Source: Lachnospirales bacterium
Lineage (GTDB): Bacteria; Bacillota; Clostridia; Lachnospirales; CAMZNU01
Length of the DNA: 64,000 bases
Assembly (NCBI GenBank): GCA_047973385.1
Contig: JBKEBX010000012.1
Coordinates: 140,269 to 204,268 of the forward strand
Reading direction: 5' to 3'
The position numbers and the translations under genes were made by a program. Positions 1 through 13,569 of the stretch are shown here, piece by piece (position 1 is the stretch's first letter; every line of letters starts with the position of its first letter). Under the pieces are notes generated by a model. It was given only the letters and a program-made list of their open reading frames with translations. It had not been told where the DNA came from and ran no database searches.

Positions 1-588
1 AATTCTCCAGCTAAAGTAATAAAACTTTGGTATGGTCCTGGTGTTCCACCACTAGATAGACGTGATGTTGTTTATAGAAAATATGAAGAAGAAGGTTTGA
101 TTGAAACAGTTGAGTTTATTGGTCCATCAACACTTGATGACGTACAAGGTGAAGTTACAACAAGAGTTGCAGCTGTTTTACCTAAATATGCAGAAGGTGA
201 AGTTGATGCTATGTGGGGTTCTTGGGATGAACTTGCCAAAGGTGGTTTAAATGCACTTAATGAAGCGAATAGAAAAGACATTAATTTAGTTTCAATTGAC
301 GTTTCTAACCAAGATATTAACTTTATGACAGAACCAGATAGTATTTGGAGTGCAACAGCAGCAGTTGACCCTACACTAATAGGTCAAGTTAATATGAGAA
401 TTCTTGCTAAGAAATTAAATGATGAAGAAACACCTGAAACTTATGACCTTGCAGCTCACTTAATTAAAGCTGAAGATTTATCAGAAGATACAACAATGGC
501 GAATTTAATTGATGTTGTACCTGGTTGGGGTGTAAGTGATGCGTTTAATGAACCATGGATGGACGAACTTAGAGAAGCTAACAAATAG
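1..588 (+). CDS. Sugar ABC transporter substrate-binding protein, C-terminal part (5' end lies upstream of the window)
   Basis: Frame 1 is open from base 1 (NSPAKVIKLWYGPG...) into the listed 97..588 ORF. The sequence is RbsB-like (type I periplasmic-binding fold). It sits directly before a matching ATPase and permease. Confidence 0.7.
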   Translation, partial: NSPAKVIKLWYGPGVPPLDRRDVVYRKYEEEGLIETVEFIGPSTLDDVQGEVTTRVAAVLPKYAEGEVDAMWGSWDELAKGGLNALNEANRKDINLVSIDVSNQDINFMTEPDSIWSATAAVDPTLIGQVNMRILAKKLNDEETPETYDLAAHLIKAEDLSEDTTMANLIDVVPGWGVSDAFNEPWMDELREANK

Positions 589-707
589 AAGTTAAGTTAG
601 CTAAACTACTTATAAATAACATAATGGGTATATTTGAGTTATTACTTACTGATTTTAAATATACCCATTTAATAACAGATAATATAAAAAAACAAGGGGG
701 TGTAGTG

Positions 708-2231
708 ATGACGGATAGTAAAAAATTTGATTTAGTAATGAAAAATATTTCTGTTGAGTTTCCCGGAGTAAAAGCTTTAGATAATGCGGAGTTTGAAATG
801 TGTAGAGGCGAAATTCAAGCTTTGATTGGAGCTAATGGTGCTGGTAAATCTACGCTTATGAAAGTTCTATCTGGAGTTAACTCTCATTATACTGGTGAAG
901 TATATTTAGATAATGAAATTATTAAATTAGATTCTCCTAAAGCTGCTAAATCTTATGGAATTGAGATAGTATATCAAGAAGTTGATACGGCTTTGATACC
1001 TTATTTCACAGTAGCTGAAAACATTTTGTTGAATAGCATTGTAAATAGTATGAGCAAAAAACAATTTGTAAATTGGAAAAGTATAAACACTAAGGCTAAA
1101 GAAACCTTAGATAGAATGAACGTGGATATAAATGTAAAAAAATTAGCTGGTGAGCTTTCTTTAGCAGAAAAACAAATGGTTCTTATAGCAAGGGCTGTAT
1201 GTGAGGAATGTAAGTATTTAATTTTAGATGAGCCGACAGCACCACTTAGCAACACTGAAACAAATGAATTGTTTAGAATTGTAAGAGATTTAGCTCAAAA
1301 TCATAATGTTGGCGTTGTATTTATTTCGCATAGAATTAATGAGCTGTTTGAAATATGCAAAGATATAACAATAATGAAAGACGGTAAGACGGTAGGCGTT
1401 AGAGAAATAGACGAGAATTTAACACAGAAAACTTTAGTTGAGCTTATGTTAGGTAGAAAACTAAATGATATGTATAATAAAATAGATATTGAAATTGGTG
1501 ATGTTTTACTAGAGGTGAAAGGACTAACTGAAAAGCAAAATACTGTGAAGAATATAGATTTAATTGTAAAAAAAGGTGAAATTGTTGGATTGTCTGGATT
1601 GGTTGGTGCTGGAAAAACAGAATTATGTAAAACCTTATTCGGTGCATTAAAGCATACAGAAGGTGATATTGTTTTAAATGGCAAGAAACTACAAATCAAT
1701 TCGCCCAATGATGCAGTTAAACAAGGCATGGCTCTTGTTCCAGAAGAACGAAGAAAAGAAGGGATTTTAGTAGGTGCTTCTGTCGTTAACAACTTATCAG
1801 TTGCAGCATTGTCGAAGTTCTCAAACAATTTTGGCTTTGTAAGTAAAAAAGATGAAAAAACTTCAGCTTTAAAATTGATAAAAGATATTGGTATAAAAAC
1901 ACCGAGTGAAAACCAACTTGTAAAGTATTTATCGGGGGGTAATCAACAAAAGGTTGCTGTTGGTAAATGGCTAGTTTCAGAAGCAGAAGTTTACATTTTT
2001 GATGAACCTACAAAGGGTGTTGATGTTGGTGCAAAAGAAGATATTTTTAATCTAATTGAAGAACTAGCAAAACAAGGTAAGGGAGTAATTTATGCGACTT
2101 GTGAATTTAGTGAAATATTAGGTATAACAGATAAAAGCTATGTTATGTATGATGGAGAAATAGTTAAAGAACTTGAAACATCAAAAACTAGCGAAGAGGA
2201 ATTATTGTATTATTCAACTGGAGGGAAGTGA
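708..2231 (+). CDS. Sugar ABC transporter ATP-binding protein with duplicated ATPase domains (RbsA/MglA type)
   Basis: Two Walker A motifs (GANGAGKST, GLVGAGKTE) and two signature motifs (LSLAEKQ, LSGGNQQK). Start moved to ATG 708, which follows the RBS AAGGGGG. Confidence 0.9.
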   Translation: MTDSKKFDLVMKNISVEFPGVKALDNAEFEMCRGEIQALIGANGAGKSTLMKVLSGVNSHYTGEVYLDNEIIKLDSPKAAKSYGIEIVYQEVDTALIPYFTVAENILLNSIVNSMSKKQFVNWKSINTKAKETLDRMNVDINVKKLAGELSLAEKQMVLIARAVCEECKYLILDEPTAPLSNTETNELFRIVRDLAQNHNVGVVFISHRINELFEICKDITIMKDGKTVGVREIDENLTQKTLVELMLGRKLNDMYNKIDIEIGDVLLEVKGLTEKQNTVKNIDLIVKKGEIVGLSGLVGAGKTELCKTLFGALKHTEGDIVLNGKKLQINSPNDAVKQGMALVPEERRKEGILVGASVVNNLSVAALSKFSNNFGFVSKKDEKTSALKLIKDIGIKTPSENQLVKYLSGGNQQKVAVGKWLVSEAEVYIFDEPTKGVDVGAKEDIFNLIEELAKQGKGVIYATCEFSEILGITDKSYVMYDGEIVKELETSKTSEEELLYYSTGGK

Positions 2232-2236
2232 TAAAA

Positions 2237-12127: not shown

Positions 12128-12150
12128 TTTGTTGTAGAGAGGAGATACAT

Positions 12151-12405
12151 ATGATACTAGGAATAGTTAAAGGTACAATTGTATCAACTAGAAAGATGGA
12201 TAATTTAGTAGGATACAAATTGTTATTGATAGAGCCTTTCTATGGTGACAAAAGTAATATTTTTATTGCAGCTGATACACTAGGGGCCGGGATAGATGAG
12301 TTGGTTATTGTAACTACTGATGAAACGACACAACATGCTTTAACAAAAAAAGTGCCAATAGATGCTTTTATTGTAGGTATTGTCGATGCAAAACCTAACA
12401 TATAA
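12151..12405 (+). CDS. BMC-P pentameric vertex protein (EutN/PduN/CcmL family)
   Basis: MILGIVKGTIVSTRKMDNLVGYKLLLIEP...DELVIVTTD...DAFIVGIVD, 84 aa, is the typical EutN pattern. Confidence 0.88.
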   Translation: MILGIVKGTIVSTRKMDNLVGYKLLLIEPFYGDKSNIFIAADTLGAGIDELVIVTTDETTQHALTKKVPIDAFIVGIVDAKPNI

Positions 12406-12417
12406 AGGAGTTTTTAT

Positions 12418-13569
12418 ATGAACAATTTAAATGCACAGCGTGTTAACTCCGTTAAAACAAGTTTGTTTGGCAAGGGTGCTATAAATATGTTACCTGATGA
12501 ACTGAAAAAAAAAGGAGTAAAACGTGGTTTAATTATTACTGATAAGTTTTTGTATGAAACAAAAATTGCTGAAAAAGTTGGTGAGAAATTACTCGAAGCA
12601 GAAGTTGAATATGCTATATATTTCAATGTAAAGCCTAACCCTACTGTTGATATTGTAAATGAATGTCTAGAAGCTGTTTTAGCTTTGGAGGTTGATTTAA
12701 TTGTTGCAGTAGGTGGTGGTTCACCTATTGATACAGCAAAAGCTGTTAGTATAGTTGCAAAAAATGGTGGAAATATTCAAGATTATGAGGGTGTAGGTAA
12801 ATCAAAAAAACCTGGTATTCCCATAGTAGCTATAAATACAACGGCTGGAACAGGTTCGGAAGTTACTGCTTTTTATGTAGTTACTGATGAAGAAAGACAT
12901 TCTAAAATGGTTATGTTTGACGTTAATTGTGTTGTAGATATTGCAATAAATGACATAGATTTTATGTTATCAATGCCAAAAAGTTTAACTTCAGCAACTG
13001 GTATGGATGCTTTAACTCATGGAATAGAAGCCGCTTTATCAACACGAGCAACTTGCTACACAGATAAAGATGCTTATTGGGCTATTGAAACTATCGCAGA
13101 GTTTTTACCAAAAGTTGTTGAAAATGGGAATGATTTGGAAGCTAGAACTATGATGGCGTACGCACAAAACGTTGCGGGTCAAGCTTTTTCTAATGCGGGG
13201 CTTGGTATGGTTCACGCAATGGCACATTCCTTAGGTGGTAAATTAAATTTACCTCATGGAATATGCAACTCACTTTTATTGCCCTATGTCTTAGAATACT
13301 ATTATACTCAAGATGAGTATAAGTATAGATTAAAGAAGATTACAAAGCATTTATGTGGGGGAAAATGTCCGTTAAAATTTATTAAAGAATTAATGATTAG
13401 TATGGATATGCCTACGGCAATTAAAGATATTGTTGATTTGCAAAGTGATGATTTTGAAGATTTAACTGATTTAGCTTTGATTGACACTTGTTTAGATGAT
13501 AATCTTGTTAAACCTAGTAGAAAAGATGTTTTAGATGTTTATAGGAAAGCATATTTAGGCACATTGTAG
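12418..13569 (+). CDS. Iron-containing alcohol dehydrogenase (PduQ/FucO/EutG-like)
   Basis: Contains GGGSPIDTAKA, the Fe-ADH histidines (DALTHGIEA, MVHAMAHSLGG, LPHG), and is 383 aa long. Confidence 0.88.
   Translation: MNNLNAQRVNSVKTSLFGKGAINMLPDELKKKGVKRGLIITDKFLYETKIAEKVGEKLLEAEVEYAIYFNVKPNPTVDIVNECLEAVLALEVDLIVAVGGGSPIDTAKAVSIVAKNGGNIQDYEGVGKSKKPGIPIVAINTTAGTGSEVTAFYVVTDEERHSKMVMFDVNCVVDIAINDIDFMLSMPKSLTSATGMDALTHGIEAALSTRATCYTDKDAYWAIETIAEFLPKVVENGNDLEARTMMAYAQNVAGQAFSNAGLGMVHAMAHSLGGKLNLPHGICNSLLLPYVLEYYYTQDEYKYRLKKITKHLCGGKCPLKFIKELMISMDMPTAIKDIVDLQSDDFEDLTDLALIDTCLDDNLVKPSRKDVLDVYRKAYLGTL

Follow-up and report, generated by a model that had tools for sequence, protein, structure and literature searches.

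A sugar importer, dihydroxyacetone phosphate shunt genes and microcompartment shell genes joined in one operon of a Lachnospirales bacterium

Background

Among the catalogued bacterial microcompartment (BMC) loci, the PVM-like type of Clostridia and Bacilli has a class II aldolase as its signature enzyme and core enzymes related to those of GRM5 (PMC4207490, PMC8217296). The Sutter 2021 catalogue counts 36 'PVMlike' loci (PMC8217296). Hungatella hathewayi is listed as a PVM-like carrier, and the substrate is assumed to be fucose- or rhamnose-like; Bacillus selenitireducens (five BMC-H, no BMC-T, one BMC-P) and Gracilibacillus ureilyticus are typed PVMlike as well. A separate literature describes the dihydroxyacetone phosphate (DHAP) shunt, which yields DHAP and acetaldehyde or 2-methylthioacetaldehyde and is represented by DrdK, DrdI and DrdA of Bacillus thuringiensis (PMC6079011). 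In E. coli the shunt supports growth on 5-deoxyribose, is clustered with a transporter and is controlled by a DeoR repressor (PMC12632272), and its study in anaerobes such as Clostridium has been called for (PMC10986504). Here we analyse a stretch of 64,000 nucleotides from a Lachnospirales bacterium (assembly GCA_047973385.1, contig JBKEBX010000012.1, positions 140,269 to 204,268 of the forward strand; "the window" below), in which an operon at positions 1-13569 joins a sugar importer and DHAP-shunt genes with BMC shell genes.

We propose that imported 5-deoxyribose and/or 5-methylthioribose (MTR) would be converted in the cytosol into a ketose-1-phosphate that is cleaved within the shell, the aldehyde being handled by the metabolosome core, and we put the probability of this reading at roughly 65%. 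What we infer in it is the identity of the sugar, an aldolase rather than a dehydratase chemistry, the set of proteins inside the shell and the assembly of the shell itself. Either 5-deoxyribose or MTR may be the sugar, and both would presumably reach the cell as by-products shed by neighbouring microbes. Only the substrate assignment is new here, the shell-plus-aldolase locus type being already catalogued as PVM-like. In a literature search that had subscription-only literature outside its reach, we found no publication joining 5-deoxyribose, the DHAP shunt or methylthioribose with a microcompartment; the sole co-mention found concerned an MTR kinase beside an Acetobacterium woodii BMC cluster, which was called 'unrelated to BMC function'. 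The feeder pathway of the PVM-like type, and hence its substrate, appears to have been unrecognised previously.

Results and discussion

Importer, shunt and shell genes form a conserved operon

All 17 genes of the operon lie on the + strand, with junctions ranging from a 4-base overlap to 82 bases, and the co-directional, tightly spaced genes listed in an initial annotation of this DNA were all recovered at their coordinates (Table 1). Protein families of the window were assigned with Pfam and NCBIfam models, which agreed with the gene identities named earlier: the importer, MtnK, MtnA, the aldolase, five BMC-H, one BMC-P, PduL, an aldehyde dehydrogenase (AldDH) and an iron-containing alcohol dehydrogenase (Fe-ADH). 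Two genes had been left undescribed in that inventory, one for a signal-less sugar-binding-fold protein (cSBP) and one for a degenerate aldolase. Five PF00936 proteins and one PF03319 protein occur together with an AldDH, a phosphotransacylase and an alcohol dehydrogenase, which makes this a BMC locus. Among the 17 operon proteins, Pfam and NCBIfam detected no BMC-T, glycyl-radical enzyme or B12 enzyme, no DeoC (PF01791) or RpiB (PF02502), no product of downstream methionine-salvage genes, and no fucose or rhamnose isomerase or kinase. As for the absences reported earlier, those of BMC-T, of glycyl-radical and B12 enzymes and of downstream methionine salvage are therefore confirmed.

A scan with the aldolase alignment, one genome per species, returned 80 loci, which were scored by tblastn with the window proteins. 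For the linkage tally, 82 species-level genome loci were split at 56% aldolase identity, and a locus was counted as linked if MtnA lay within 10 kb. Of the 51 loci at 56% identity or more, 45 have MtnA and 30 have MtnK; of the 31 below this value, five have MtnA and none has MtnK (Fisher p = 5e-11 for MtnA). Several exceptions to MtnA linkage are contigs ending near the aldolase. Aldolases of about 44-50% identity are found in shell loci without MtnK or MtnA, for example the GRM5-like locus of Anaerocolumna sp. (L078; L-numbers denote the loci or contigs compared), which carries DUF336, a zinc-dependent alcohol dehydrogenase (Zn-ADH), PduS, a PduT-like BMC-T and a DeoR regulator.

The conserved gene set was determined by clustering open reading frames (ORFs) over 22 loci carrying shunt genes. 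The aldolase and PduL were present in all 22, the binding protein, the ATPase, MtnK and MtnA in 21 each, the permease in 20, AldDH in 19, BMC-H in 18, BMC-P in 17 and Fe-ADH in six. Shunt and BMC genes occur together in at least 19 genomes of Clostridia, Bacilli and Treponemataceae and also in a bin labelled Burkholderiales. The arrangement is beyond chance, as at least 19 other species-level genomes show this set of genes. Carriers include Proteocatella sphenisci, Anaerocolumna aminovalerica and Acetanaerobacterium elongatum; clostridial bins labelled Hungatella, Acetivibrio, Lachnospiraceae and Oscillospiraceae; the Bacilli Bacillus sp., Cytobacillus, Calidifontibacillus, Salipaludibacillus and two Gracilibacillus species; and further bins of Erysipelothrix and Treponemataceae. 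In shell-less sibling loci, the only recurring genes are those for MtnA, the aldolase and, in some cases, MtnK, with no other methionine-salvage gene among them.

The published default for PVM-like loci is a fucose or rhamnose metabolosome, in which fuculose-1-phosphate or rhamnulose-1-phosphate would be cleaved to lactaldehyde, MtnK and MtnA being unrelated neighbours. This is difficult to reconcile with a linkage to MtnA that is near-universal in the aldolase clade, shell-less loci included, with the operonic junctions, and with the adjacency of importer, MtnK, MtnA and aldolase, which persists despite rearranged gene order (L009, L010 and L017). Neither FucI, FucK, RhaA nor RhaB was found in the operon, and over the 22 sibling loci no conserved cluster corresponded to a fucose or rhamnose isomerase or kinase, nor to a glycyl-radical enzyme, a B12 enzyme, DeoC or RpiB. 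The sister clade of the aldolase, which resides in GRM5-like fucose/rhamnose loci, and the resemblance of the alcohol dehydrogenase to FucO speak for the default, which we nevertheless consider very unlikely for this operon.

The rearranged loci share an alternative order, namely aldolase, CoA-disulfide reductase (CoADR), CoA-transferase, importer, MtnK, MtnA and PduL, with shell genes next where the contig continues. It was observed in L009, L014, L015, L041, L010, L017 and L018, which are uncultured Bacillota, Clostridia and Oscillospiraceae bins. The aldolase starts at 10001 and MtnA lies near 18900-19000 in L009, L014, L015 and L041; PduL is near 20100 in L009 and L041 and near 10170 on the shorter L014. 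From this alternative order, it can be concluded that the linkage survives rearrangement. The Burkholderiales-labelled case is a metagenome-assembled genome named 'Burkholderiales bacterium' (L012, JBLNCA010000045.1) that encodes MtnA, a BMC-H and an extended aldolase of 69% identity, which reflects either horizontal transfer or a binning error.

Kinase, isomerase and importer

The window kinase aligns over its full length with MtnK of B. subtilis (2olc; 281 bits), the DPEFAF motif being aligned, and the isomerase likewise with B. subtilis MtnA (2yrf; 326 bits). The latter keeps the motifs CNAGS and GxDR..NGD, which we take to hold the catalytic Cys and Asp of MtnA. Identity to the enzymes of E. 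coli ATCC 25922 is 33% for MtnK and 39% for MtnA. Both proteins lack terminal extensions, and judged by their sequences they would be cytosolic. The earlier proposal of an aldolase-fed metabolosome with an MtnK-MtnA-aldolase feeder and a pentose importer draws support from the equivalog scores (Table 1), from these motifs and from the linkage of 45 in 51 loci; it needs correction in that the aldolase is no ortholog of DrdA or Ald2 (see below).

The importer is of the ribose type. The start of the window cuts the gene of its binding protein, of which the fragment corresponds to residues 181-375 of a 375-aa protein on L001, the contig with an identical aldolase gene (tblastn, 100% match); the 5' part lies outside the window and the full protein carries the lipobox LSAC. 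For the ATPase, the start at 708 follows the gene call on L001. The RbsA and AraG models score 488-493 bits on the ATPase and the ribose permease model 173 bits on the permease, all under their cut-offs.

The same chemistry could act on another sugar: D-ribose (via ribulose-1-phosphate to glycolaldehyde), another 5-substituted pentose or a 6-deoxy-hexofuranose, with glycolaldehyde, lactaldehyde or some other aldehyde as product. The aldolase falls in no characterised orthologous group and has a sub-threshold match to the haloarchaeal ribulose-1-phosphate aldolase model (91 bits), the best models for the Fe-ADH are lactaldehyde reductase (368 bits, under its cut-off of 523) and glycolaldehyde reductase, cSBP is most like binding proteins for hexose derivatives, and in one sibling locus a Dak1/Dak2 kinase is added. 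The latter is the A. elongatum locus (L093), where the genes for the Dak1 and Dak2 dihydroxyacetone kinase subunits directly follow that of Fe-ADH. In contrast, MtnK and MtnA exceed equivalog cut-offs trained on MTR enzymes, cheaper ribose routes exist in bacteria, and no other sugar-specific enzymes recur in the 22 loci. Moreover, DrdK uses 5-deoxyribose and MTR equally, and among the pentoses and hexoses tested it took only these two (PMC6079011). A different sugar is, in our judgement, improbable.

Shell proteins and candidate encapsulation signals

The first BMC-H (H1) is an atypical protein of 105 aa, orthologs of which (105-111 aa) are present in 14 of the 22 sibling loci. By its size, it fits the 'mint' PVMlike BMC-H of the catalogue (105-109 aa).

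The aldolase consists of a conserved core of about 235 residues, a linker variable in length and sequence and a conserved terminal helix, which in the window protein reads SAITELVTKKVIEALS. An AlphaFold2 (AF2) model built with 19 close homologs is weak (pLDDT 62); in it, the linker at 238-254 is of low confidence and the helix spans 254-274. In all 20 MtnA-linked loci with shell genes the aldolase is 251 aa or longer (median 282), and each one inspected terminates in the helix. As for the 31 loci without shell genes in the flank, 16 encode aldolases of fewer than 250 aa which end at the core, such as that of Clostridium aciditolerans (221 aa). Among the remaining 15, several have PduL at the flank edge, so that shell genes may lie beyond it.

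Extensions were also observed at the N-termini of PduL (ELVEYISQLVLNELKSL) and AldDH (NDIEMIVKQVVEKLS), in both cases ahead of the Pfam domain and with hydrophobic residues spaced in a heptad-like manner; no such extension is present on MtnK, MtnA or cSBP. Hydrophobic-moment scores failed to separate the putative encapsulation peptides from controls.

Ancestry and chemistry of the signature aldolase

The earlier description of the class II aldolase as intact holds: E84 (the glutamate of the PSSE motif, equivalent to Glu73), H103, H105 and H166 do not vary among 19 homologs, and the metal site is preserved. Several other observations weigh against the role proposed here. The protein is only 30% identical to DrdA (PDB 6btd) and 26% to E. 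coli Ald2, and it scores under every NCBIfam cut-off, the highest fraction of any being reached with the model of the MtnB dehydratase (TIGR03328; 93 vs 137 bits). In place of FucA Tyr113 it has a Leu, with an invariant Glu two residues on. Its nearest relatives (48-50% identity) are GRM5-like BMC aldolases in loci without MtnK and MtnA, and with this sister clade, descent from a fuculose- or rhamnulose-type enzyme is plausible. The window's MtnK and MtnA are nearer to the methionine-salvage enzymes of B. subtilis (about 47-50% identity) than to the shunt enzymes of E. coli (33-39%). Finally, the likely encapsulation peptides of the aldolase, AldDH and PduL are assigned from sequence pattern and from correlation.

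With these identities and its separate clade, the aldolase was rejected as an ortholog of either DrdA or Ald2. In a neighbour-joining tree DrdA groups with FucA of S. pneumoniae (53% identity), and the window clade pairs with the GRM5-like BMC aldolases. As the window aldolase sits with a BMC-type clade and not with DrdA or Ald2, the aldolase step of the shunt would have been recruited independently in these Firmicutes, and because there is no such orthology, the substrate of the enzyme is read from its context only.

The MtnB score, together with the likeness of MtnK and MtnA to the B. subtilis salvage enzymes, could indicate methionine salvage, with the protein encoded at 5560-6393 acting as an MtnB-type dehydratase and the MtnK-MtnA-MtnB trio standing merely beside an acetaldehyde/ethanol BMC. 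Dehydratase behaviour had been named in the initial annotation as an outcome that would overturn the proposal, and the TIGR03328 score stays under its cut-off. Genes for MtnC, MtnD, MtnW and MtnX were found neither in the operon nor recurring in the sibling loci. Dehydratase chemistry is further disfavoured because the shell would then lack any supply of aldehyde, and because the C-terminal extension, which this protein shares with all shell-linked homologs and which fits an aldehyde-making signature enzyme, would go unexplained. Together with the regulatory evidence given next, this leaves methionine salvage only a very slim chance.

Regulation

On L001, the binding-protein gene is immediately preceded by a gene for a LacI-family regulator, which falls just beyond the window start and itself follows spoIIIA genes; the earlier statement that the operon has no regulator thus holds inside the window only. 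LacI or DeoR regulators are found at the loci compared, DeoR in 10 of the 22 with shunt genes. A DeoR-family regulator, present in most PVM-like members but not an obligatory feature, is replaced by LacI in the window lineage. The presence of LacI, and of DeoR in many siblings, argues for a substrate-induced growth pathway and not for methionine salvage. In B. subtilis, the mtn genes are under S-box control. An Rfam scan of seven loci detected neither a SAM (S-adenosylmethionine) riboswitch (S-box) nor a T-box, and the lack of an S-box also speaks against methionine salvage. A terminator scan found no terminator-like site after the Fe-ADH gene, and inside the operon the promoter and terminator scan was uninformative (80 promoter-like sites vs 75 expected).

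Accessory proteins and CoA genes

The AF2 model of cSBP (pLDDT 92.6) shows a complete sugar-binding fold of the MalE/SmoF type. Because its first strand starts at residue 2, the protein has no signal peptide. The best folds found by Foldseek are of the SmoF/MalE type, i.e. sulfoquinovose- and maltose-binding proteins (TM 0.84, 18% identity), which defines the fold class and not the ligand. Only about 209 homologs exist, all of about 370 aa and with an invariant SFCDGH motif. cSBP occurs in 10 of the 22 shunt-gene loci, and a Thermoanaerobacter shunt locus that lacks shell genes (L092) also encodes it, next to a short aldolase; its place is therefore with the shunt and not with the shell.

The degenerate paralog is 29% identical to the main aldolase. 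Its HxH motif has become HSY and its NHG motif ELG, by which two of three metal-binding histidines are lost, and it is a probable pseudoenzyme. A word-indexed homolog search with it matched only itself. Its one relative, found by gene context, belongs to the closest sibling locus (L086); this copy has lost the same ligands (HAY/NKNG) and carries a C-terminal helix resembling an encapsulation peptide, which the window copy lacks. The paralog may thus represent an encapsulated pseudo-aldolase. In L086, the gene order is cSBP, CoADR, CoA-transferase and then the degenerate aldolase.

CoADR (NF007123, 588 vs 458 bits) and a divergent two-subunit CoA-transferase are encoded in 18 of the 22 shunt-gene loci. 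A search of the whole window detected neither of the two, which is a further point against the proposed reading: the window lineage appears to have lost them, and the locus may therefore be a reduced variant. Taken further, this would make the window copy a decaying or non-functional one, in keeping with a degenerate paralog that is truncated and lacks metal ligands as well as the C-terminal helix of its L086 counterpart. Yet all 17 ORFs are intact, with catalytic motifs kept and tight spacing, and the core of importer, shunt, shell, AldDH, PduL and alcohol dehydrogenase is complete; we regard decay as very unlikely.

Surroundings of the operon

After a gap of 352 bases, the operon is followed by a gene for an Hbd-like 3-hydroxyacyl-CoA dehydrogenase, with its own strong promoter-like site and a terminator-like hairpin after it. 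The gene is not conserved in sibling loci; its product is possibly a downstream sink for acetyl-CoA. The remaining window is of housekeeping character (Lon, tig-clpP-clpX, glnA, fab and acc genes). On the - strand there is an ORF of 906 aa with an N-terminal domain like the C-terminal domain (CTD) of the RNA-polymerase alpha subunit and a Sigma70 region 4 helix-turn-helix. It adjoins an ORF of 325 aa without Pfam match, both lying where the window is richest in AT (GC 0.24).

Table 1. Features of the window and of selected sibling loci (positions in the window unless an L-number is given; scores in bits, cut-offs after "vs")
Feature	Locus	Position	Strand	Evidence or remark
ABC-importer sugar-binding lipoprotein, 3' part	window	1..588	+	Peripla_BP_4 PF13407, ribose-binding type; C-terminal 195 residues
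ABC importer ATPase, two ABC domains, RbsA/AraG-like	window	708..2231	+	PF00005 x2
ABC importer permease, RbsC-like	window	2237..3214	+	BPD_transp_2 PF02653
MtnK-family 5-methylthioribose/5-deoxyribose 1-kinase	window	3228..4448	+	TIGR01767 416 vs 275
MtnA-family aldose-1-phosphate to ketose-1-phosphate isomerase	window	4460..5542	+	TIGR00512 400 vs 279; NF004326 438 vs 271
Class II aldolase, 277 aa, putative signature enzyme	window	5560..6393	+	PF00596 169; directly upstream of BMC-H genes
BMC-H, atypical 105-aa type (H1)	window	6438..6755	+	PF00936 52.6, partial match
BMC-H	window	6759..7031	+	PF00936 77
BMC-H	window	7028..7321	+	PF00936 56
BMC-H, canonical PduA/EutM-like	window	7352..7624	+	PF00936 101; 62-82% identity in sibling loci
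PduL-type phosphotransacylase	window	7634..8287	+	PF06130 240 from residue 29; PRK15070 247 vs 209
Signal-less sugar-binding-fold protein (cSBP), 368 aa	window	8313..9419	+	SBP_bac_1 PF01547; no NCBIfam match
Degenerate class II aldolase paralog, 232 aa	window	9458..10156	+	PF00596 90
Acylating CoA-dependent AldDH, EutE/PduP type	window	10238..11689	+	PRK15398 636 vs 403; Pfam match from residue 47
BMC-H with Lys-rich N-terminal extension of about 50 aa	window	11708..12127	+	PF00936 93.5, residues 54-129
BMC-P pentamer (vertex protein)	window	12151..12405	+	PF03319 79
Fe-ADH, FucO/EutG-like, putative NAD+ recycling	window	12418..13569	+	PF00465 166 and PF25137
Promoter-like site of Hbd-like gene	window	13612-13640
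Hbd-like 3-hydroxyacyl-CoA dehydrogenase	window	13922-14764	+
Terminator-like hairpin after Hbd-like gene	window	14788-14830
906-aa ORF and adjoining 325-aa ORF	window	40976-44747	-	906 aa: alpha CTD-like domain, Sigma70 region 4; 325 aa: no Pfam match
CoADR and CoA-transferase	L002	15896-18851
CoADR and CoA-transferase	L086	11182-14065
CoADR and CoA-transferase	L093	11107-14080
Relative of degenerate aldolase	L086	14119-14940
cSBP	L092	10001-11149
cSBP	L093	10001-11110
Dak1 and Dak2	L093	15365-17035

Proposed pathway and its significance

In the pathway that we propose, the lipoprotein binding protein and the ribose-type ABC transporter would import free 5-deoxy-D-ribose and/or 5-methylthio-D-ribose. 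Cytosolic MtnK would phosphorylate C1, and cytosolic MtnA would convert the aldose-1-phosphate into the ketose-1-phosphate, which would enter the shell. There, the encapsulated aldolase would cleave it into DHAP, exiting to glycolysis, and acetaldehyde or 2-methylthioacetaldehyde. The confined aldehyde would be turned into acyl-CoA by AldDH and into acyl-phosphate by PduL, from which ATP could be formed outside the shell, with Fe-ADH reducing a second aldehyde molecule and so recycling NAD+.

With such a pathway, a BMC type listed in catalogues since 2014, uncharacterised and present in gut Clostridia such as Hungatella, would gain a specific substrate that can be tested. Cultured carriers exist for this purpose, among them P. 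sphenisci, A. aminovalerica, A. elongatum, Calidifontibacillus oryziterrae, Gracilibacillus massiliensis, G. oryzae and Salipaludibacillus daqingensis, which makes the idea directly testable. The pathway would also join two separate literatures, that on the DHAP shunt for SAM by-products, which supports growth in pathogenic E. coli, and that on metabolosomes, and it suggests that anaerobes devote an organelle to the harvest of 5-deoxypentoses released by their communities. Attention is drawn as well to two conserved accessory proteins, cSBP and the degenerate aldolase.

A broader version of the hypothesis is more tentative, and we think it rather unlikely in that generality: much of the Firmicutes PVM-like class would be an organelle for the SAM by-products 5-deoxyribose and MTR, with two undescribed accessory proteins, and not for fucose or rhamnose. 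If it were true, these accessory proteins would be a cytosolic sugar-binding-fold protein and, in some lineages, an encapsulated pseudo-aldolase. With MTR as the substrate, the shell would confine 2-methylthioacetaldehyde and yield methylthioacetyl-CoA, the production of which could explain the CoADR and CoA-transferase of the sibling loci.

Comparison with known systems

The sugar-phosphate-utilising (SPU) metabolosomes resemble the proposed system in that a sugar-phosphate aldolase releases acetaldehyde inside the organelle. They differ in being defined by the class I aldolase DeoC together with RpiB, and SPU typing was rejected as both are absent from the operon proteins. The supposition of the initial annotation that SPU classes also carry isomerases of the eIF-2B family was not borne out either, the HMM (hidden Markov model) table of the catalogue containing no PF01008 model.

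As for GRM5 and GRM5-like loci, they hold the closest sister clade of the aldolase, with the same C-terminal helix, and their AldDH, PduL and BMC-P are 40-50% identical to those of the window. The GRM5-like loci, however, have DUF336, Zn-ADH, PduS and a PduT-like BMC-T, none of which is present in the window, and lack MtnK and MtnA, while canonical GRM5 has a glycyl-radical diol dehydratase which is likewise missing here. GRM5 typing was tried and rejected, the diol dehydratase and its activase, PduS and DUF336 all being absent from the operon.

The DHAP shunt, as DrdK-DrdI-DrdA or as MtnK-MtnA-Ald2 of E. coli, shares with the window the trio of kinase, isomerase and class II aldolase, a sugar transporter, a sugar-type repressor and a cluster without downstream methionine-salvage genes. 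In E. coli ATCC 25922 the operon has the order mtnK-mtnA-aldolase-GRP permease and lies beside yjhU/mtnR, so that a GRP-family permease stands where the window has an ABC importer. The window aldolase also comes from another clade and carries a putative encapsulation peptide, and its aldehyde would enter a shell with AldDH, PduL and alcohol dehydrogenase, whereas elsewhere it is released or reduced in the cytosol.

By gene content, shell counts and the typing of members of the same genera, the locus appears to be of the already catalogued PVM-like type. Like members of this type, it has a PF00596 aldolase with a putative C-terminal encapsulation peptide and GRM5-related AldDH, PduL and BMC-P, and its shell of five BMC-H, no BMC-T and one BMC-P equals that of the B. 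selenitireducens locus; the shunt-plus-shell architecture of the window is also seen in other Gracilibacillus species (L025, L027) and in a Hungatella bin (L008). The differences are that the catalogues omit MtnK, MtnA and the importer, all three of which are present here, and that the window has LacI instead of DeoR and a degenerate aldolase paralog. The question raised in the initial annotation, whether this architecture had already been described with a substrate, is therefore answered in part: the shell-plus-aldolase type had, as PVM-like with fucose or rhamnose assumed, while the MtnK/MtnA feeder is absent from the catalogues.

In the PVM (Planctomycetes/Verrucomicrobia) organelle itself, as far as it is represented in PMC4207490 citing Erbilgin 2014, a ketose-1-phosphate likewise enters and an encapsulated class II aldolase forms DHAP and an aldehyde, the latter being processed by the core enzymes. 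According to the same account, it differs in having a BMC-P triplet and few BMC-H, in its phyla, and in the conversion of fuculose-1-phosphate or rhamnulose-1-phosphate to lactaldehyde. By analogy, the mechanism proposed for the Lachnospirales operon would follow the logic of the PVM organelle, supplied by a different feeder pathway.

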